In this document: in pieces, positions 2,622 to 52,087 of the stretch | Numbering within the stretch: position 1 is the first letter of the stretch | Layout of the letters: each line of letters opens with the position of its first letter | Source of the DNA: Escherichia virus TH21 | Length of the DNA stretch: 52,087 nt | Strand: one strand, 5' to 3' | Sequence record: MT446395.1 | The notes under the pieces: generated by a model | The model's database searches: none | What the model was told of the DNA's origin: nothing | What the model saw: the letters and a program-made list of their open reading frames with translations, nothing else | Position numbers and translations under genes: made by a program

Positions 2622-2995
2622 TTTGATATACATGTAACCGATGTAACTCGGTGTATACAATCTCGTCCGCGGAAAATGATATACGCGCAGTTACGCCTAG
2701 TTACGCGATAGTTACATTAAAATATCTATATATATCAACCTTCTACTATAATTATTATTATTATATATATTACTGTGTATATCGTGTAACTACTTCTATA
2801 GAGTGTTCCGCTTATAAATTTCTAATATGGTTATTTATACAGTATCTAATCACGCATACACTAATGCACCCTCCGCGAAAAATGATATACACGATATACA
2901 CGCTGTTTACATCAAGCTATGGCTGGGCCGGATAGCCATTTTATGTAACTAATGCCATTACATACACGCTATTACAAATATCTACATGTAACTAC

Positions 2996-3023
2996 TTGAC
3001 TGACGCAACCAAGCGCGTATAGT
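2996..3023 (+). promoter_or_regulatory. sigma70-type promoter (TTGACT-N16-TATAGT) for the recombination operon
   Basis: hexamers read directly at 2996..3001 and 3018..3023; ATG at 3057. Confidence 0.55.
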
Positions 3024-3056
3024 TACCCACATCAACAACGAACGAGGATTAAAGAG

Positions 3057-4097
3057 ATGACCAAGCCAATGTTTCAATACTTCACGTCAGAAGAAATGAG
3101 CAACGACTTTTACCACAGCAAAGATGAGTGGACCGCCGAGTATGTATCAGGCTCATCACTCAGCAAGATCCACAGTACTTGCCCTGCGGCGTGGAAGTTT
3201 GAAATGAACTCGACGACTAAGGCGCTGGTCTTCGGTACGCAGTCGCATACCAATTTCGAGAGTAAGGCTCTTTTTGAACGTCAATATCGCCGCGCACCGA
3301 AAGAAAGCGAGATTGAAAACGTAATCACTAGCCAGGCGACATTGGCAACGAAATTAAAATCATTTGGCCTGACTGGTACAAGCGGCAAGCAATATCCAGA
3401 GCTAATCAAAATGATGGTTGATTGTGGAGAAGATCTCAACGTCATGTGGCTGATTAATATGATCGCACAGTGTCAGGCGTGGGCCGATGGTGTGGAACTG
3501 GTTAAAGCGGAAGACTACGACGCTTGCGTAAGTATGCGACAGGTTCTTGAAATGATTCCTGAACATAATGCTTGCATGAACAGCGAAACGGCATTCCGTG
3601 AGTATTCTTTGTTCGGCGTAATTTGTGGCGTTAAAGTTAAGGTGCGACTTGACCATGTTGATATTGTTAAAGATCCAGAAGCTATCCGACGCATGGGTTA
3701 CGATCCTGAGATTCACCCTGAAATTGTCGTCATCACTGATTACAAAACGACAATGAGCGCCAACCCGACCGAGTTCCCTCGCCTGGCGTTCAACCTTGGC
3801 TATTACCTCAAGATGGCATTGCAGCGTGACCTGTTCGTTAAGTGCTTTGAAGAAACGCGACCTGTGGTTGTGCGATTGCTGGCCCAGGAGAAGAAGGAGC
3901 CTTACTTGCCTATGGCGTACCGGATGAGTAGCGATCAGCTTAAGATTGGTCGAGCGCAGTACATGAGCGTGATTCACACCTTCTCAATGTGCGAAGCCAA
4001 TGACGTATGGCCTTCATACAATAATGGCGAGCCGGAAGTAGAACTGGATACGCCTGATTGGGTAATGAAACAGTTCAATCATATCCTAGAAGCATAG
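3057..4097 (+). CDS. recombination exonuclease, PD-(D/E)xK-type
   Basis: 346 aa; D...(I)TDYK nuclease-like motif; first gene of exo-annealase-SSB triad. Confidence 0.55.
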   Translation: MTKPMFQYFTSEEMSNDFYHSKDEWTAEYVSGSSLSKIHSTCPAAWKFEMNSTTKALVFGTQSHTNFESKALFERQYRRAPKESEIENVITSQATLATKLKSFGLTGTSGKQYPELIKMMVDCGEDLNVMWLINMIAQCQAWADGVELVKAEDYDACVSMRQVLEMIPEHNACMNSETAFREYSLFGVICGVKVKVRLDHVDIVKDPEAIRRMGYDPEIHPEIVVITDYKTTMSANPTEFPRLAFNLGYYLKMALQRDLFVKCFEETRPVVVRLLAQEKKEPYLPMAYRMSSDQLKIGRAQYMSVIHTFSMCEANDVWPSYNNGEPEVELDTPDWVMKQFNHILEA

Positions 4098-24093: not shown

Positions 24094-24573
24094 ATGAAAG
24101 AGCAAGTAACACTAGGGCAGGTGATTCGTGAGATGGCAAAGGCAGCACTCAAGTCCGAGGATAAGCAATTCAGCGTGCCACTAAGTAAGATTGCAAGCAT
24201 TATCGGAGTCGATGGCGATAACATTCCAAAGCTAAAGAGTTCATACATCTACAACACGACAGCCCGCATGACTGAGCTAAGGGATGTTGGATTGAAAGCG
24301 ACTCACTCCTATGACGACGACGAGGGTGATAGCGAGTTCGGTGAATCAACCCTGGCAGGTGATAGAAGACTGGTTATCAAGCTGGTACCTGGCACGGCGA
24401 ACATTGGAATCAGAAAGAAGACCAATAACGCGATAAAGGAAGAGGCAATCACCGAGTTCAAGGCGAGAATTTCAAAGGTTATGCCAGACATTTCAGAGTA
24501 TGAAGGAGAGGCGCTTGCCGCTGCAATGAAGGCAATTAAAGATTACCGCTCAATCATTGAGGAGATTAAATAA
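24094..24573 (+). CDS. hypothetical protein, first gene of plus-strand accessory operon
   Basis: 159 aa; strong RBS. Confidence 0.5.
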   Translation: MKEQVTLGQVIREMAKAALKSEDKQFSVPLSKIASIIGVDGDNIPKLKSSYIYNTTARMTELRDVGLKATHSYDDDEGDSEFGESTLAGDRRLVIKLVPGTANIGIRKKTNNAIKEEAITEFKARISKVMPDISEYEGEALAAAMKAIKDYRSIIEEIK

Positions 24574-28432: not shown

Positions 28433-28634
28433 CAGTAAAGGTATTGAATTTTGCGCGGTCGGAGGTGTGGTCCTGCGCACTGGTGGCGGGTACGGGATTA
28501 TTAACACCTCAGGCATCACACAGGATCAGTTGGTAAAGGGCATCCAGGCTGGAATCTTTACCTATCACTCATCGTTGACGGCTGATGATTACATCACACT
28601 TGATGCTGCGGTTCGCGTTGGGTTCATCGAATAG
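28416..28634 (+). CDS. hypothetical protein
   Basis: 72 aa. Confidence 0.4.
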   Translation: MQVYTNSKGIEFCAVGGVVLRTGGGYGIINTSGITQDQLVKGIQAGIFTYHSSLTADDYITLDAAVRVGFIE

Positions 28635-28648
28635 CACCTTTTGTTAAA
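28632..28648 (+). promoter_or_regulatory. cassette palindrome TAGCACCTTTTGTTAAA
   Basis: followed by hairpin with ctgactggTATAAT. Confidence 0.5.
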
Positions 28649-28706
28649 AGGGGATTCATCCTGACTGGTATAATCCCCACATCAACCACACGAAAGGAAG
28701 TTAAAA

Positions 28707-29246
28707 ATGAATCAGATGTACACCATGATTAAGCACGAATTGAATACCGCGGAAATCAATGCGCCAGTCTACGTGTTTGATTACGACGGTACGCTGTCGG
28801 ACGGATCGCATCGTTTGCATAAGTTGCCTACAAAGGATTTGCACCTTACTGAGTCATGGTCTGAGTTCAATCGATTGTCAGAGCGTGATGAGCCTATCGA
28901 ATCAACCATTCAGGTAATGAATAGCCTGTACTACTCCGGCGCGTTCATCATCATACTAACCGGGCGCTCAGATGAGGTGTGCGAGATTTCAACTAAATGG
29001 CTTCACGATGCTGGCGCTAAATACAACGTTCTGGTCATGCGCCAGGATGATGACAACCGCAAGGATACGATCATCAAGGAAGAATTTTTACGATACATTG
29101 GCTTGCACCGCATCACCGCAGCGTGGGATGATAGCGTGAGTGTTATAAAGCACTTCCGCAGCTTAGGTATTACCACCTATCAGGTTTGTGATTACGCCGA
29201 TAACAATCGAGAGGATTTAAAATCTCATGGGGTGCATAAGAAGTGA
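28707..29246 (+). CDS. HAD-superfamily phosphatase/nucleotidase-like protein
   Basis: 179 aa; motif I FDYDGTLSDG (DxDGT). Confidence 0.5.
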   Translation: MNQMYTMIKHELNTAEINAPVYVFDYDGTLSDGSHRLHKLPTKDLHLTESWSEFNRLSERDEPIESTIQVMNSLYYSGAFIIILTGRSDEVCEISTKWLHDAGAKYNVLVMRQDDDNRKDTIIKEEFLRYIGLHRITAAWDDSVSVIKHFRSLGITTYQVCDYADNNREDLKSHGVHKK

Positions 29247-29730
29247 TTCAGAGTACCTAAAATTCCTATTCAGTTACAATGACGGGGTGATAACTTGGCG
29301 AAACAAGTCATCACCTCAAAGTAGGATTGTTTTAGGTGAGCGAGCAGGAAGTTTTGATAAGGATGGATACCTGATCGTAAGGGTTAGAAATCAAACATCG
29401 TCGATACATAGGATCGTGTGGGTTTATCATAACGGAGAAATACCAGCCGGATTTGAAATTGACCATGTTGACGGCGATAAACTAAATAACAGGATTGAAA
29501 ACTTAAGACTCACAACAAGATCTGTTAATTGCAGTAATCAGAGAAAGAGAATTGATAACACCAGCGGTGTTTGTGGTGTAACATTCATGAAAGATAGGCT
29601 AAAATACAGGGCGCAAGTCAGAGGTGTAAGGCTTGGTCAATTCGATACTAAAGAAGAAGCCGCCGAGGCTGTTGCTAAGTACAGATCATATTCTGGCGGA
29701 TTCACTGAAAGACACGGTAAGGAGATTTAA
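29227..29730 (+). CDS. HNH homing endonuclease (HNH + AP2-like DNA-binding domain)
   Basis: 167 aa; HNH core IDHVDGDKLNNRIENLR; paralogous to 36891..37373. Confidence 0.65.
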   Translation: MGCIRSDSEYLKFLFSYNDGVITWRNKSSPQSRIVLGERAGSFDKDGYLIVRVRNQTSSIHRIVWVYHNGEIPAGFEIDHVDGDKLNNRIENLRLTTRSVNCSNQRKRIDNTSGVCGVTFMKDRLKYRAQVRGVRLGQFDTKEEAAEAVAKYRSYSGGFTERHGKEI

Positions 29731-29733
29731 AAA

Positions 29734-30354
29734 ATGTCAAAGATTATCATTCTCAACGGTCCAGCTTCGGTTGGTAAAGACACGATTGGCAACGCCCTAG
29801 CAGCAGATTACAACTGCATCCCGACCAGCTTCAAGCGTCCGATGTTTGAGATTGCAGCATCCATCCTTGGGGCCAGGGCTTTTTCAAAGTTCATCACAGC
29901 ATACGACGACCGCGATCAGAAAGAGATGCCTCAGAGCTTCCTTGGTGGCAAGACATGCCGCGAGTTCATGATCTGGATTAGCGAGTCTGTGGTAAAGCCG
30001 CTATTTGGCAACCAGCAATTCGGAAAGCTGATGAGCGAACATATCAAGCTGTGTGACGAAGGATTCTGTTTTGTGTGTACTGATGGCGGCTTCCCTGATG
30101 AAGTGATCAGGCTCGTTGAAGATGGTCACGATGTTACCCTGGTCCGCTTGTTCATGGATGGCAAGACTTTCGCGGGAGATAGCCGTGATTACATCCGCAT
30201 CAAGCAATCGCACTTCCCTGATTACAAGAAATATAACGAGCATGATGTGCATCTGGTAAATGGTGATGTTGATGATGGCGTCCTTAAAGTAGTTCGCGCT
30301 TGCTTGGTTAGTCCTTCAATGGATGATGATTGGGCAGACGATATTCCTTGGTAA
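29734..30354 (+). CDS. deoxynucleoside monophosphate kinase with acidic SSB-tip-like C-terminus
   Basis: 206 aa; P-loop GPASVGKDT; C-terminus DDDWADDIPW. Confidence 0.6.
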   Translation: MSKIIILNGPASVGKDTIGNALAADYNCIPTSFKRPMFEIAASILGARAFSKFITAYDDRDQKEMPQSFLGGKTCREFMIWISESVVKPLFGNQQFGKLMSEHIKLCDEGFCFVCTDGGFPDEVIRLVEDGHDVTLVRLFMDGKTFAGDSRDYIRIKQSHFPDYKKYNEHDVHLVNGDVDDGVLKVVRACLVSPSMDDDWADDIPW

Positions 30355-30355
30355 A

Positions 30356-30372
30356 TAGCACGAATTGCTAAA
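30356..30372 (+). promoter_or_regulatory. cassette palindrome TAGCACGAATTGCTAAA
   Basis: followed by terminator-like hairpin cccgc-tacg-gcggg plus TTTTGTT and TATAGT. Confidence 0.5.
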
Positions 30373-30427
30373 CCCGCTACGGCGGGTTTTGTTATAGTTA
30401 GTTCACACCAAACGAGAGGAAAGCAAA

Positions 30428-32687: not shown

Positions 32688-33224
32688 ATGAAAGACGAAA
32701 ACTTCACCAGTCACGCAAACGAGAAGGTTCGAATCGGTAACTTCAAAGAGCTATACAATAAAAAGTATGGCGACATTGCCAACCTGAACCATCGTCACCC
32801 AATGACGCCTGAGACTGTATTCAACCTTGCTGTTAAATATTTCTCATGGGCCGAGGACCAGGCAATTAAGGCAATCGAAACGGCGAGCTTCCAGGGCGTT
32901 GTCACTGAGAACCTAGTGCACAAGCCGCGAGTGTTCACGCTCAACGGCTTCCAGCTTTATTGCGGAGTTACCTCCGGTGCTATCCAAAGCTGGCGCGCGT
33001 CGCCTGGATTCTCTGAGGTAATGGAGTTCATCGACTCAGTAATCATTGAACAGAAATATCAGTTAGCTGCGTCCAACCTTATCAACGCCGGATTCGTAGG
33101 CAAAGACATTGGTATCGACAAGGCGGCAGAAGTGAACGTGCAGAACAACGTATCTGCTGGCGCGGTGTCCGTGACTACGGATGAATTTAAAGAAGCCGTT
33201 AAGGATATTTTGGGGGAATTATGA
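32688..33224 (+). CDS. terminase small subunit
   Basis: 178 aa; position immediately upstream of large terminase; ATGA overlap. Confidence 0.6.
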   Translation: MKDENFTSHANEKVRIGNFKELYNKKYGDIANLNHRHPMTPETVFNLAVKYFSWAEDQAIKAIETASFQGVVTENLVHKPRVFTLNGFQLYCGVTSGAIQSWRASPGFSEVMEFIDSVIIEQKYQLAASNLINAGFVGKDIGIDKAAEVNVQNNVSAGAVSVTTDEFKEAVKDILGEL

Positions 33225-34807
33225 TCCAGTGGGAAGATCTCGACCTTGCAAGAAAGCAGGCAATAAAGGCGCTCTCTGAGCAGTCATTCGAAAAGATGTT
33301 ACGAATCTGGTTCCAGATCGGGCAGGCTCAGAAGTTCCAAAGCAACTGGCACTTCACTTACCTTTGCTGGAAGGTTGAGCAGATCATCAAAGGCGAGGCG
33401 CAGAACGTGATATTCAACATCACGCCAGGCTCCGGCAAAACTGAGATCTTCTCCATCCACATGCCAGTGTACGGGATGTTAAAGAGTCCGAAGGTTCGAA
33501 ATTTGAACCTTTCGTTCTCTGACAGTCTGGTAAAGGATAACGGGATCAGGACGCGTGAGATTATCGGTTGCGATGAGTTCCAGGAGCTATGGCCTACCAA
33601 ACTGGCTAAGGCGTCCGGTGGCGATATTACCGCACTGAACGATAACGATAAGGCGTGGCTGACGTTAACATCACGTGCGATCGGCGGCCAGGTAACTGGT
33701 AAGCGTGGCGGGTACATGGAAGACCCCAGTAAACCCTGGAGATTTACCGGAATGTTAACGCTTGATGACCCCGACAAACCGAAAGACATGTATTCGTCCA
33801 TTAAGCGAAAGGCGGCTCATACACTGCTAAAAAACACCGTGCGATCACGTCGTATGACTGACAGAACGCCATGCGTTGTTGTGCAGCAGCGACTGCACGT
33901 TAACGACTCGACGTGGTTCCTGATGAATGGCGGTATGGGTGGCATGAAGTTTGAGCAGGTAATCATTCCGGCGCTGGTAACTGAGGAATACAGAGACACG
34001 CTTCCTGACTGGTTGAAAGAGGAATTTGATAAAGACGTGCTATCGTCCACGTCGGTAATGATTGACGGTGTTGAGCACTTCTCTTTCTGGCCTGCGAAGG
34101 AAAGCGCAGAAAGCCTACTGGCATTGCGCGAAGCTGACCTGTATACGTTTGAATCTCAGTATCAGCAGAAGCCCATCGCGCTTGGCGGCAACGCGTTTAA
34201 ATCGGACTGGTTCCAGTATTACGGAGACGGCGAAAAAGCCGACATGCCAAAACCGGATCGCTTCGAATACCTGTTCACCACTGCGGATACAGCGCAGAAA
34301 GCAGAGGAAATACACGACTACAGCGTCTTTGTTTTGTGGGGTAAGTATAAGGATCGCGTATATTTCATAGACGGCATTCGCGGTAAGTGGGAAGCGCCGG
34401 ACCTTGAAACGATGGCTCTCAACTTCTACGGCAACTGCTTTAAATGGGCGAAGGAGAACAAGACGTCACTACGCAAGGTTTATATTGAAGATAAGGCGAG
34501 CGGTACAGGACTGATTCAGTCAATCAACAAGAAGCTCCCGATTGACATCACGCCAGTACAGCGAGATACCGACAAGGTTACGCGCGCAATGGACGCAGCA
34601 CCAATCATGAAATCAGGGCGAATCGTGTTTCCTGAATCACACCCAATGCTTACTGAGATGGAGGCTGAACTGGTCGGCTTCACATTTGACGATAGCCATC
34701 CTCACGATGACATCGTGGATAACGTGGTTGATGCTGGTAACTTCGAGATGAACTTGCTTGATGATCCTGTAGCTCGAATGAAACGATTAGCGGGAATGCG
34801 CAAATAA
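33221..34807 (+). CDS. terminase large subunit
   Basis: 528 aa; Walker A (TPGSGKT); C-terminal nuclease-like acidic motifs. Confidence 0.8.
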   Translation: MIQWEDLDLARKQAIKALSEQSFEKMLRIWFQIGQAQKFQSNWHFTYLCWKVEQIIKGEAQNVIFNITPGSGKTEIFSIHMPVYGMLKSPKVRNLNLSFSDSLVKDNGIRTREIIGCDEFQELWPTKLAKASGGDITALNDNDKAWLTLTSRAIGGQVTGKRGGYMEDPSKPWRFTGMLTLDDPDKPKDMYSSIKRKAAHTLLKNTVRSRRMTDRTPCVVVQQRLHVNDSTWFLMNGGMGGMKFEQVIIPALVTEEYRDTLPDWLKEEFDKDVLSSTSVMIDGVEHFSFWPAKESAESLLALREADLYTFESQYQQKPIALGGNAFKSDWFQYYGDGEKADMPKPDRFEYLFTTADTAQKAEEIHDYSVFVLWGKYKDRVYFIDGIRGKWEAPDLETMALNFYGNCFKWAKENKTSLRKVYIEDKASGTGLIQSINKKLPIDITPVQRDTDKVTRAMDAAPIMKSGRIVFPESHPMLTEMEAELVGFTFDDSHPHDDIVDNVVDAGNFEMNLLDDPVARMKRLAGMRK

Positions 34808-36890: not shown

Positions 36891-37373
36891 ATGAATTTCA
36901 ATGATTATTTTTATCACACAGAGAAGGATCTCATCTGGAAAAATCCGACATCGAGAAGGGTTAAGGCTGGCGACGTTGCTGGTTGGATGGATGAAGATGG
37001 ATATATTTACGTTAGGATCATGGGGAGGCTAACTCCGGCACATAGGGTAATATGGGAGATGCATAACGGTGAAATACCCAAAGGAATTGAAATTAACCAT
37101 ATAAATCATATCAGAGATGATAACAGGATAGAGAACCTAAGACTCGTAACCAGGCAAGAGAATTGCAAAAGCGTATCCATAAGCAAGTCAAACAAGAGCG
37201 GAGTTGTCGGGGTTAGCTGGTGTAAGAGAACGGGGAAATGGTTTGCTTCAATAAGGGTGAACAAAAAGGAGAAATTCCTTGGTAGATACGATAGAAAAGA
37301 TGACGCAATATCTGCAAGAAAGGCTGCAGAGTCTGTATATGAATTTCATAAAAATCACGGGAGTAAAAAATGA
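36891..37373 (+). CDS. HNH homing endonuclease (HNH + AP2-like domain)
   Basis: 160 aa; INHINHIRDDNRIENLR; paralogous to 29227..29730. Confidence 0.65.
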   Translation: MNFNDYFYHTEKDLIWKNPTSRRVKAGDVAGWMDEDGYIYVRIMGRLTPAHRVIWEMHNGEIPKGIEINHINHIRDDNRIENLRLVTRQENCKSVSISKSNKSGVVGVSWCKRTGKWFASIRVNKKEKFLGRYDRKDDAISARKAAESVYEFHKNHGSKK

Positions 37374-49148: not shown

Positions 49149-52087
49149 ATGATTAAAAATAGTGTAGTGACGGGCCGAAAGGGTGGCAGCAGCAAGCCGC
49201 ATACCCCACAGGAGATGGAAGATAACCTGATCTCAATCAACAAGATTAAGGTTTTGCTCGCTGTTAGTGATGGCGAGGTTGACGCGAACTTCTCATTAAA
49301 GGACTTATATCTTAATGATGTTCCTGTAATTGCACCATCCGGCGAGGTTAACTATGAAGGCGTAACGGCTGAGTTTCGCCCTGGAACGCAGACTCAGGAT
49401 TACATCAAAGGCTTCAACGACACGGCGGCTGAGTTCACTGTAGGCCGTGAATTGAAAACAACGACGCCTTACGTGATCTCGGTAACGAATAAACAGCTAT
49501 CAGCCGTCCGCGTAAAAATCCTGATGCCTCGCGGCGTTACAACGAAAGAAAACGGCGATATGGTCGGCGTGGTCGTGAAGTGGGCAGTAGATATGGCGGT
49601 AGATGGCGGGAACTACCAGGAAGTTTTATCAGACGTCATCGACGGAAAGACCATTAGCGGATATGACAAAACAAAGCGAATCGACCTCCCAGCGTTCAAT
49701 AGTCAGGTTCTATTGCGTGTTCGACGCGTTACGGCTGATTCAACTGATGCGCGCATCGTTGATACGATAAACATCCAGTCTTATGCCGAAGTGGTTGATG
49801 CTAAATTCCGTTACCCTCTGACTGGTCTTGTTTACGTCGAGTTTAACAGCGAGCTATTCCCGCAGATCCCAAGTATTAGCACGAAAAAGAAATGGAAGCT
49901 CATTAACGTTCCGAGCAACTATAATCCAGAGCTTCGCGAGTATAACGGCACATGGGATGGCAGCTTCAAAAAAGCGTGGTCAAATAATCCGGCGTGGGTG
50001 CTTTATGATTTGATTACCAATCAGCGCTACGGACTCGACCAGCGGGAATTGGGAATCGCGGTTGATAAGTGGTCACTCTATGACGCTGGTCAATACTGCG
50101 ACCAAAAAGTGCCAGACGGTCACGGAGGAACGGAGCCTCGCTATCTTTGCGATGTGGTGATTCAGTCTCAGGTTGAAGCGTACAATCTTGTGCGAGACAT
50201 TTGCTCAATATTCCGAGGAATGAGCTTCTGGAACGGTGAGAGCCTTTCAATTGTCATCGACCGACCGAGAGAGGCGTCTTATATTTTCACTAACGATAAC
50301 GTCGTTGATGGCTCATTTGCCTATACGTTCGCAAGTGAAAAAAGCATGTACACAACCTGCAACGTCACGTTCGACGACGAGCAGAACATGTACAGCCAGG
50401 ACATTGAGGGCGTGTTCGACCTTAACGCTTCATTGCGCTTCGGCCATAACCCGACAAGCATCACGGCGATCGGATGCACTCGACGCAGTGAAGCGAATCG
50501 ACGGGGCCGCTGGGTTCTCAAAACAAACCTTCGCAGCACAACGGTGAGTTTTGCAACTGGCCTTGAGGGTATGATTCCGATGATTGGCGACGTGGTAGCA
50601 ATCGCTGATAACTTCTGGTCAAGCAATCTGACGCTTTCGTTATCAGGTCGTGTGATGGAAGTGTCAGGCCTGCAAGTGTTCACTCACTTCAAGGTTGATG
50701 CGCGCGCTGGTGATTTCATTATCGTGAACAAGGCTGACGGAAATCCGGTGCGCCGGACGATTTCAAAAGTGTCTGCGGACGGGAAAACCATTGAGCTTAA
50801 CGTTGGATTCGGCTTTGATGTTCAACCCAACACAGTGTTCGCAATCGACCGCACTGATGTGGCCTTGCAGCAATACGTTGTAACCGGAATCACGAAGGGA
50901 GACGGCGACGATGAGTTCACGTACAGCATTACGGCAGTTGAATACGATCCGAACAAATACGACGAGATTGACTACGGCGTAAATATTGATGACCGACCAA
51001 CCAGTATTGTAGATCCTGACAACATGCAGCCACCAAAAAACATTGTTGTTTCATCATACTCTCGAATTGTGCAGGGGATGAGCGTTGAGACAATGGTGAT
51101 AGGGTGGGATAAAGTTCAGTACGCGAGCAAGTACGACGTGCAGTGGAGAAAGGATAACGGTAACTGGATGAACGTACCGCGTACAGCAAGCTCAGAGGTT
51201 GAGGTTGAAGGGATTTATGCGGGTAATTATCACGTACGCGTAAGGAGCATATCAAGCGGTGGAAACACGTCTCCATGGTCTGATGTTGTCAGCGTTGGGT
51301 TGACTGGTAAGATTGGGAAGCCAGATAAACCAACAGTAATAACCGCATCTAACGACCAGGTATTTGGGATACGGGTTAAATGGGGATTCCCTGAAGGTTC
51401 TGGCGACACTGCCTACACTGAGTTGCAGCAGATACCAGATAATGGCGCGGGAGGTCACACAGGAGAGGAGAACGCAAGCCTGTTAACAATGATCCCATAC
51501 CCTCAGTACGAGTACTGGCACTCGACACTACCGGCAGGATATGTGAACTGGTACAGGGCAAGATTGGTAGACAGGATTGGTAACGCCTCTGACTGGTCTG
51601 ACATTGTTCGCGGAATGGCAAGCGATGACGTTGAGTCAATAATTGGAGAAATAAAGGTTGATATCGAGAATTCCGAGGGGTTTAAGTACCTACAGCAGAA
51701 CGCCATTGAGTCAAACGGAGCTATTCAGGCGCAGGCGGAATCAATTCTTGAAAACGCACTTGCAAACGACACGGACGTGCGACGAATGACCAAGGAAAAC
51801 GGCAAGCGTAAGGCTGAATACGTTCAGGCGGTGAATCTTATTGCTGATGAAACTCAGGCGCGCGTAGAGGCTCTCACTCAGCTTAAAGCGCAGATTGATG
51901 ATGATGTCGTAGCCTCCATAACTGAAGTTCAGACGGCACTAGCCACCGAAACGGAAGCAAGGACCACGGCGGATACAGCTCTGAGTTCTCAGCTTGGAGA
52001 TACTCAGGCAGCGCTGAATGAAAAACTTGATTCCTGGGTGGATGCAGAATCAGCTGGCGCCCAGTACGGCGTTAAGTTAGGTCTAAA
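49149..52087 (+). CDS. tail tip / host-specificity protein (lambda J-like), 5' part; runs off the window end and continues at 873..1317
   Basis: open frame from ATG 49149 with no stop to 52087; in frame with ORF 85..1317 through the 872-bp repeat; full length about 1127 aa. Confidence 0.75.
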   Translation, partial: MIKNSVVTGRKGGSSKPHTPQEMEDNLISINKIKVLLAVSDGEVDANFSLKDLYLNDVPVIAPSGEVNYEGVTAEFRPGTQTQDYIKGFNDTAAEFTVGRELKTTTPYVISVTNKQLSAVRVKILMPRGVTTKENGDMVGVVVKWAVDMAVDGGNYQEVLSDVIDGKTISGYDKTKRIDLPAFNSQVLLRVRRVTADSTDARIVDTINIQSYAEVVDAKFRYPLTGLVYVEFNSELFPQIPSISTKKKWKLINVPSNYNPELREYNGTWDGSFKKAWSNNPAWVLYDLITNQRYGLDQRELGIAVDKWSLYDAGQYCDQKVPDGHGGTEPRYLCDVVIQSQVEAYNLVRDICSIFRGMSFWNGESLSIVIDRPREASYIFTNDNVVDGSFAYTFASEKSMYTTCNVTFDDEQNMYSQDIEGVFDLNASLRFGHNPTSITAIGCTRRSEANRRGRWVLKTNLRSTTVSFATGLEGMIPMIGDVVAIADNFWSSNLTLSLSGRVMEVSGLQVFTHFKVDARAGDFIIVNKADGNPVRRTISKVSADGKTIELNVGFGFDVQPNTVFAIDRTDVALQQYVVTGITKGDGDDEFTYSITAVEYDPNKYDEIDYGVNIDDRPTSIVDPDNMQPPKNIVVSSYSRIVQGMSVETMVIGWDKVQYASKYDVQWRKDNGNWMNVPRTASSEVEVEGIYAGNYHVRVRSISSGGNTSPWSDVVSVGLTGKIGKPDKPTVITASNDQVFGIRVKWGFPEGSGDTAYTELQQIPDNGAGGHTGEENASLLTMIPYPQYEYWHSTLPAGYVNWYRARLVDRIGNASDWSDIVRGMASDDVESIIGEIKVDIENSEGFKYLQQNAIESNGAIQAQAESILENALANDTDVRRMTKENGKRKAEYVQAVNLIADETQARVEALTQLKAQIDDDVVASITEVQTALATETEARTTADTALSSQLGDTQAALNEKLDSWVDAESAGAQYGVKLGL

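Follow-up and report, generated by a model that had tools for sequence, protein, structure and literature searches.

The window analysed here is the whole 52,087-nucleotide sequence of Escherichia virus TH21 (MT446395.1), a Nouzillyvirus-like phage of the Drexlerviridae that at this locus is nearest to TH27 and ESCO41, with approximately 85-87% nucleotide identity. Three co-oriented open reading frames on the plus strand encode a phosphatase (28707-29246), an HNH endonuclease (29227-29730) and a kinase-like protein (29734-30354), exactly where the sequence-only reading of this DNA had placed them. The ATG of the HNH gene lies inside the phosphatase frame, giving an overlap of 20 nt, and its stop codon TAA (29728-29730) is followed by AAA and then by the ATG of the kinase gene. 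The features of the locus are the following.

28626-28698, plus strand: conserved intergenic piece upstream of the HAD gene, presumed to bear a promoter
28707-29246, plus strand: HAD-superfamily phosphatase of the T4 Pnkp phosphatase-domain type, 179 aa (Pfam, PHROG and PDB matches)
29136-29246, plus strand: C-terminal tail of the HAD protein, codons 144-179 (approximately 36), which moves with the HNH gene
29211-29229, plus strand: translation-initiation region of the HNH gene, inside HAD codons (read from the sequence)
29227-29730, plus strand: free-standing HNH_3 (I-HmuI-like) endonuclease, 167 aa (Pfam HNH_3, alignment with I-HmuI)
29719-29724, plus strand: likely Shine-Dalgarno sequence of the kinase gene, AAGGAG, within the last HNH codons and 9 nt before the kinase ATG (read from the sequence)
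29734-30354, plus strand: P-loop kinase resembling T4 gp1 (dNMP kinase), 206 aa (PHROG profile, predicted fold)
30370-30399, plus strand: intrinsic-terminator-like hairpin with T-run, closing the three-gene unit (terminator scan)

The three genes look like one transcription unit because a promoter-like piece precedes them and a terminator-like hairpin follows them. The upstream piece is 95% identical to the corresponding regions of ETEP102, 50EP and ESCO41 and contains an extended -10 element, TGGTATAAT, at 28666-28674. The authors of the ETEP102 record annotated a promoter at the equivalent region, and that record also has a terminator at the place equivalent to the hairpin, which in the window occupies 30370-30389 ahead of its T-run. 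A simple consensus promoter scan gave nothing above shuffle expectation and missed the conserved piece, which is nevertheless the presumed start of the HAD-HNH-kinase unit. No promoter is evident for the HNH gene itself, which is probably transcribed with its neighbours.

The first gene encodes a HAD-type hydrolase with a DxDGT motif, as had been recognised in the sequence-only reading. The motif is found at 28779-28793, and the protein matches the Pfam profile HAD_PNKP (E=1.6e-17, 64.4 bits against a gathering cutoff of 27.6) and PHROG 415 (4.7e-61). Among solved structures it is nearest to the phosphatase domains of Pnkp1 and T4 Pnkp, and the PDB match to T4 Pnkp (5uj0/1ltq, 1e-6) covers residues 203-297 of that 301-aa enzyme. 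All Pnkp-type phosphatase motifs (D25xD27GT, T85-G-R, R118-K119-D120 and D141-D142) are conserved and align with T4 Pnkp, but the whole Pnkp kinase domain is missing: the 179 aa contain no kinase domain and no Walker A motif, and the match is limited to the phosphatase part of Pnkp. The name 'polynucleotide kinase' carried by relatives is therefore a misnomer, and a widespread mis-annotation of a phosphatase-only protein can be corrected.

The third gene had been called a dNMP kinase. It is present and encodes a P-loop kinase with the Walker A sequence GPASVGKDT at 29758-29784. The protein matches PHROG 139, 'dNMP kinase' (E=1.7e-42), while nothing significant was found in Pfam, NCBIfam or PDB with phmmer and a 31-sequence profile; the only informative comparisons were the PHROG profile and structure prediction with a fold search. 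The predicted fold, with its GxxxxGKD(T) P-loop, is closest to the dNMP kinase T4 gp1, on which the model superposes best although sequence identity is only 13-16%. Since the kinase domain of T4 Pnkp is absent among the best fold-search matches, 'dNMP-kinase-like' is the better-supported reading of this protein, as judged by profile and predicted fold.

The same comparisons bear on what the two enzymes do. They might form a split and permuted Pnkp-like end-healing pair, a 3'-phosphatase with a polynucleotide 5'-kinase, that acts in RNA or DNA repair and not in nucleotide salvage. The affinity of the HAD protein to T4 Pnkp and Pnkp1 in their phosphatase domains would suit such a pair, as would the adjacency of the two genes across the Drexlerviridae and a Stp-like annotation nearby in phage Rtp, but the fold search lends no support to a polynucleotide kinase. 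The split pair is kept as a low-confidence rival and appears rather improbable. The description of phosphatase and kinase as a putative nucleotide-salvage module is plausible. The polynucleotide kinase (PNK) and dNMP kinase of T1-like phages have been suggested to enhance nucleotide supply (PMC13164509).

The gene between them is indeed a separate, free-standing HNH gene whose start overlaps the end of the phosphatase gene. Its product matches Pfam HNH_3 (E=2.2e-20, 72.5 bits against a cutoff of 24.8), and the only solved sequence relative is I-HmuI (1u3e, 3.9e-6). Residues D79-H80 (29461-29466), N92 and N101 align with D74-H75, N87 and N96 of I-HmuI, which we take to have the catalytic roles of D-H general base and two asparagines of a beta-beta-alpha-metal motif. 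The C-terminus is AP2-like at a level below the cutoff (E=0.0017, 19.1 bits against 33.3), and many homologues have a precomputed PF00847 match; an AP2-type DNA-binding domain at the C-terminus is common in the HNH_3/I-HmuI-like family. The likeness to I-HmuI, a nicking enzyme of phage SPO1, lies in the HNH_3 core with its conserved D-H, N and N residues, and only residues 45-108 align, outside which the window's protein has its weakly AP2-like end. The genomic setting also differs: the gene for I-HmuI lies within a group I intron in a DNA polymerase gene. In the window, by contrast, the HNH frame is not that of the HAD gene, and the genes on either side are each whole and collinear with those of intron-less relatives. 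The HNH gene is thus an open reading frame of its own, outside any intron or intein.

Values of dN/dS between 0.12 and 0.20 in all unsaturated pairs show that the HNH gene is under purifying selection, and the catalytic residues are intact in eight of nine aligned homologues. The remaining variant, P0002 from the metagenomic contigs L008 and L009, has Asn in place of the catalytic His, a loss that fits the degenerate phase of the homing-endonuclease life cycle.

Translation of the HNH gene appears to depend on phosphatase codons. The likely Shine-Dalgarno sequence, GAGG at 29211-29214 within CGA GAG GAT, is the sole such element before the HNH ATG (29227-29229). That ATG arises from the phosphatase codons CAT GGG for His-Gly, and its distance of 11-12 nt from the GAGG exceeds the optimum. 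CGA/AGA GAG GAY and CAT GGN are found in all six distinct alleles with the HNH gene (HNH+), and alleles without it (HNH-minus) mostly have CAC. At the other end, HNH-minus alleles have unrelated intergenic sequence with its own Shine-Dalgarno element before the kinase gene.

The arrangement is not new because the same trio is already annotated in phage T1 (NC_005833), where gp64, gp63 and gp62 are listed in the same order as 'polynucleotide kinase', HNH endonuclease and hypothetical protein. The start of gp63 is annotated at the ATG equivalent to that of the window's HNH gene, within phosphatase His-Gly codons; the Shine-Dalgarno sequence is likewise in REDL codons, and the HNH stop codon lies 2-3 nt before the kinase ATG. 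T1 and the window share 66% of amino acids in the HNH protein, 67% in the HAD protein and 49% in the kinase, of which gp62 is the homologue. The two phages are of different kinds, T1 being a Tunavirus and the window Nouzillyvirus-like, and synonymous sites between them are saturated. A 2026 paper on T1-like phages maps T1 with PNK, HNH and dNMP kinase and remarks on 'occasional repositioning of HNH nucleases' (PMC13164509).

The HNH gene is sporadic. It is missing from ESCO41, ETEP102, TH27, 50EP, CJ19, PH1062 and JulesPiccard, in which phosphatase and kinase genes are adjacent with annotated gaps of 43-120 nt, and a contiguous ESCO41-type empty junction is present in 11 phage records. Among 16 Tunavirus loci in IMG/VR, three are occupied and 13 empty in flanks that are 95-99% identical, with kinases at 97-100%. 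An HNH gene in every relative at this position would have spoken against the insertion that had been proposed; instead, empty alleles are many.

The occupied site, on the other hand, is constant. Every HNH homologue with at least 66% amino acid identity lies at the same HAD-kinase junction with the same 20-nt overlap, and the HAD neighbour of close homologues has 179 aa (176 in T1). The metagenomic relatives are at this junction (94% in L008 and L009, 83% in L011 and L012, 71% in L010), as are 12 contigs with another HNH member of a cluster formed at 90% or more, and the proteins of T1, JMPW2 and BIFF at 65-66%. Relatives at 83-100% were encountered in metagenome assemblies only, and none in the phage record collection.

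Comparison with relatives that lack the HNH gene, which the sequence-only reading had proposed for defining the boundaries, gives a sharp right edge and a left edge inside the phosphatase gene. Homology returns just before the kinase ATG, at 29718 against 50EP, 29720 against TH27 and 29731 against ESCO41. On the left side, homology to ESCO41 ends at 29204. Identity switches just after the codons of the DDS motif IV (29127-29135) against T1 and ESCO41 and nearer codon 160 in ETEP102, and such tracts of variable length fit gene conversion.

The phosphatase tail groups by presence of the HNH gene and not by genus. Over residues 21-140, T1 is 95-98% identical in nucleotides to HNH-less Tunavirus phages and approximately 60% identical to the window, whereas in the tail T1 has 56-65% identity to the HNH-minus allele of its own genus (56% at residues 161-176) and, at residues 161-176, 75% to the window. 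The identity of the window to HNH-less Nouzillyvirus-type relatives falls correspondingly from 78-95% at residues 101-140 to 56-60% in the tail. Base composition changes at the same place: the tail (GC 0.414) and the HNH gene (0.407) form a low-GC block between the phosphatase body (0.473) and the kinase gene (0.481).

The tails also differ in their residues. The sequence Y(A/E/T)..(N/S)REDL.SHGV is common to all six distinct HNH+ tails, and the 28 distinct HNH-minus tails all have YG(D/E). In the window the change is G164A (codon 29196-29198), a candidate target or immunity position, and the R-E-D-L codons are at 29208-29219. The ribosome-binding site of the HNH gene is not the only possible reason for the REDL codons, because R-x-D-L tails are also found in certain alleles from other genera that lack the HNH gene (L044, L051 and L054). 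Two repeats flank the HNH frame, an inverted one of 11 nt (29216-29226 and 29722-29732) and a direct one of 9 nt, GATTTAAAA. They were rejected as terminal repeats of an element and are put down to chance or to spacers of ribosome-binding sites because they are not conserved in L008, L010 or T1.

The alignments indicate that the presumed mobile unit is a replacement cassette and not a clean insertion. The earlier proposal of a homing-endonuclease insertion is therefore borne out in its empty sites, constant site and mosaic flanks, but not as a simple insertion, since the C-terminus of the phosphatase is recoded. The mosaicism extends beyond the cassette. Against L008, the identity of the window rises from 54-82% to more than 90% at approximately 29007 and mostly stays above 90% to approximately 30400. 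Against L010, it is approximately 70% over the HNH gene and the first 70 nt or so of the kinase gene, 72-88% over 29807-30056, 94-100% from 30057 and 100% by 30107. Both gradients look conversion-like and centred on the HNH gene.

The segment 29227-29730 is probably a free-standing I-HmuI-like HNH_3 homing-endonuclease gene with one specific site in the Drexlerviridae, the junction of the Pnkp-type HAD and dNMP-kinase-like genes. Expressed from the common transcript, its enzyme would nick or cut an HNH-less allele during mixed infection. The site of attack is likely to be near the phosphatase gene's 3' end, around its invariant 'YGD' codons TAT GGC GA(T/C). Recombinational repair would then copy the HNH gene and adjoining DNA from the HNH+ genome, and the transferred unit would take the place of the last 16-36 or so codons of the phosphatase gene and of the entire intergenic spacer. 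The new tail would keep the phosphatase frame and bring the Shine-Dalgarno sequence and ATG of the HNH gene, while its altered YGD codons, with Gly changed to A, E or T depending on the HNH+ allele, would make the carrier immune to its own enzyme. Both host genes would stay expressed because the 3' end of the HNH gene supplies the ribosome-binding site of the kinase gene and the tail keeps the phosphatase in frame. We infer this course from sequence comparison, and with it the cleavage activity, the position of the target, the immunity of carriers and the direction of transfer; from the sequences, each event could be either a gain or a loss. The candidate target 14-mer, GACTATGGCGATAA, has one site with two mismatches elsewhere in the window, at 24208, which is uninformative.

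The cassette could also be seen more specifically as a tail swapper that moves between the genera Tunavirus and Nouzillyvirus-like with a replacement C-terminus for the phosphatase, a tentative reading that may or may not hold. The stretch of approximately 110 nt would at once preserve the function of the host gene, provide the HNH gene with its ribosome-binding site and start codon, and remove the target in the YGD codons. On this reading, the phosphatase gene would be a hotspot on both sides, since unrelated HNH genes are found at its 5' end in 50EP and some IMG/VR phages.

Old residence with repeated loss and passive recombination could give the same pattern because the HNH proteins of T1 and the window have diverged about as much as their flanking genes, with saturated synonymous sites. 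The HNH gene would then be an old immobile resident that has been deleted repeatedly, and ordinary recombination of co-infecting phages would shuffle a linked haplotype of HAD tail and HNH gene. The variant P0002 persists on at least two contigs without the catalytic His, and the HNH-less ETEP102 keeps an HNH+-like 'SVNVIKHF' stretch that is compatible with loss. However, a passenger without function would hardly be expected to show strong purifying selection and mostly intact catalytic sites. The cassette is, moreover, common to two genera whose flanks are only approximately 60% identical, with sharp breakpoints in backgrounds of 95-99% identity. The invariant Gly codon is also replaced by differing residues in every HNH+ allele, which looks like selection against the target. 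An immobile resident is accordingly judged unlikely, and mobility by homing is preferred.

Purifying selection would also suit a domesticated enzyme that serves the phage and is not purely selfish, as a packaging accessory of the HK97 gp74 type, by degrading host DNA to feed the kinase, or by excluding competitors. The presumed co-transcription and tight coupling with two nucleotide-related genes would agree with such a role, and recent literature reports that homing endonucleases can benefit their phage (PMC13096335). The HNH gene is, however, dispensable, since it is missing from most close relatives, which are viable isolates. A second HNH paralogue in the head module of the window is equally sporadic among relatives, as is typical of selfish endonuclease genes. 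The terminase genes (32688-34807) are approximately 3 kb away, and the packaging role was rejected on this distance and the absence from relatives. Domestication is thus very unlikely in comparison with a homing gene.

By arrangement, the HNH gene resembles that of MobE in phage T4, a free-standing HNH homing endonuclease that has been studied experimentally. The mobE gene lies without a promoter between nrdA and nrdB, and its enzyme nicks the allele lacking the endonuclease gene, with co-conversion of the flanks (PMC2790892). Both are promoterless HNH genes between two nucleotide-metabolism genes, presumably transcribed from upstream in the window, sporadic among relatives and associated with co-conversion of flanks. 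They differ in that a strand-specific nick in T2 nrdB and mobility have been demonstrated experimentally for MobE, whereas for the HNH gene in the window both are predicted from sequence. The window's cassette also appears to rewrite the C-terminus of the upstream gene. The literature searched contained no cleavage, nicking or homing experiments on this HNH protein or T1 gp63, and no experimental work on gp63 or the HAD-kinase junction.

Nuclease genes have been found to mark boundaries of genetic exchange in phages (PMC10448857), and the HNH gene of the window fits this picture. The kind of system is already known; new here are the window's HNH variant and the analysis of its boundaries and tail swap. 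The locus offers a natural example, repeated in a second genus, of a way in which a free-standing homing endonuclease may reside in an operon without harm to its neighbours, by overlapping and recoding the tail of the upstream gene and by supplying the ribosome-binding site of the downstream gene. It also yields a specific predicted target, the TAT GGC GAY region of the phosphatase gene. As a probable local recombination hotspot, it should be masked in phylogenies of the Drexlerviridae.

Enlarged HAD-kinase gaps occur in L016, L018 and Henu8; they contain only small unrelated open reading frames, and no HNH remnants were detectable in them by tblastn. Distant HNH homologues, with at most 48% identity in the protein search and at most 44% among phage records, include some at other sites, for example the window's own paralogue and P817.

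The gap between the HAD phosphatase and kinase genes is enlarged by 400-830 bp in other Drexlerviridae genera (loci L016, L018 and L022, the last from Henu8). The extra sequence holds small, unrelated ORFs, one of which, in Henu8, may encode a membrane protein. This makes the phosphatase-kinase junction a general hotspot for insertions. In 50EP, a relative with no HNH gene at this junction, an unrelated HNH gene lies directly upstream of the phosphatase gene and overlaps its start, and similar HNH genes lie upstream of it in some IMG/VR Drexlerviridae loci (L032, L051 and L069). Both ends of the phosphatase gene thus host endonuclease genes, in different phages.

Features at and around the phosphatase-HNH-kinase locus and in the head module
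50EP (L002) 2178-2630: unrelated HNH gene, 151 aa, directly upstream of the phosphatase gene
ESCO41 (L003) 2941-3024: C-terminal extension of the phosphatase
TH27 (L004) ~3130-3213: C-terminal extension of the phosphatase
Window 29214-29222: 9-mer GATTTAAAA, just 5' of the HNH ATG
Window 29723-29731: 9-mer GATTTAAAA, across the HNH stop codon
Window 28630-28649: ~20-bp sequence AATAGCACTTTTTGTTAAAA, single copy
ESCO41 (L003) 1441-1460 and 2329-2348: ~20-bp sequence AATAGCACTTTTTGTTAAAA, two copies
Metagenomic contigs L008 4001-4504 and L009 2321-2824: HNH variant P0002, 94% identical to the window HNH
Window 36891-37373, + strand: second HNH_3 paralogue, 160 aa, amid two head-module genes

Even where the HNH gene is absent, the phosphatase gene has a hypervariable 3' end. 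Many HNH-less alleles, also those of ETEP102 (L001) and of L083, L084, L088 and L097, encode a C-terminal extension of 26-30 amino acids with a C-x-H...C-x-x-C pattern, which is suggestive of a small zinc ribbon and comes in two unrelated versions, the ESCO41 type and the TH27 type. The window phosphatase and other alleles of 179 amino acids have no such extension. The copies of GATTTAAAA around the HNH ORF also yield an imperfect inverted repeat of 11 nt (29216-26 and 29722-32). Neither repeat is conserved among the other HNH+ alleles, so both are probably due to chance or to the composition of the ribosome-binding-site spacer.

A further rearrangement adjoins the locus. In ESCO41 and most relatives a gene of 744-810 bp (247-269 aa) separates the phosphatase gene from the 72-aa gene, flanked in ESCO41 by the two copies of AATAGCACTTTTTGTTAAAA; the window lacks this gene and has one copy of the sequence. 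Judged from this pattern, its presence or absence is a moron-like indel.

Variant P0002, carried by two contigs, is probably an inactive copy because the catalytic histidine is replaced by asparagine (EIDNIDGD vs EIDHVDGD). The second HNH_3 paralogue shares 40% amino acid identity with the first HNH and has a GC content of 0.40, with flanks at 0.50; it starts 3 nt after the upstream stop codon and overlaps the downstream head-module gene by 4 nt. It is carried by CJ19, TH30, ESCO41 and BUCT-XGG-1 and appears to be missing from TH27 and PH1062, in which the match across the site is ~460 bp shorter than the query, and because of this apparent absence it seems to be a further homing-endonuclease gene with a polymorphic distribution.

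The window begins and ends with an exact direct repeat of 872 bp (1-872 and 51216-52087), leaving a unique length of ~51,215 bp. There are two readings of this repeat: terminal redundancy, or a circularly permuted genome whose assembly overlaps itself at the ends.
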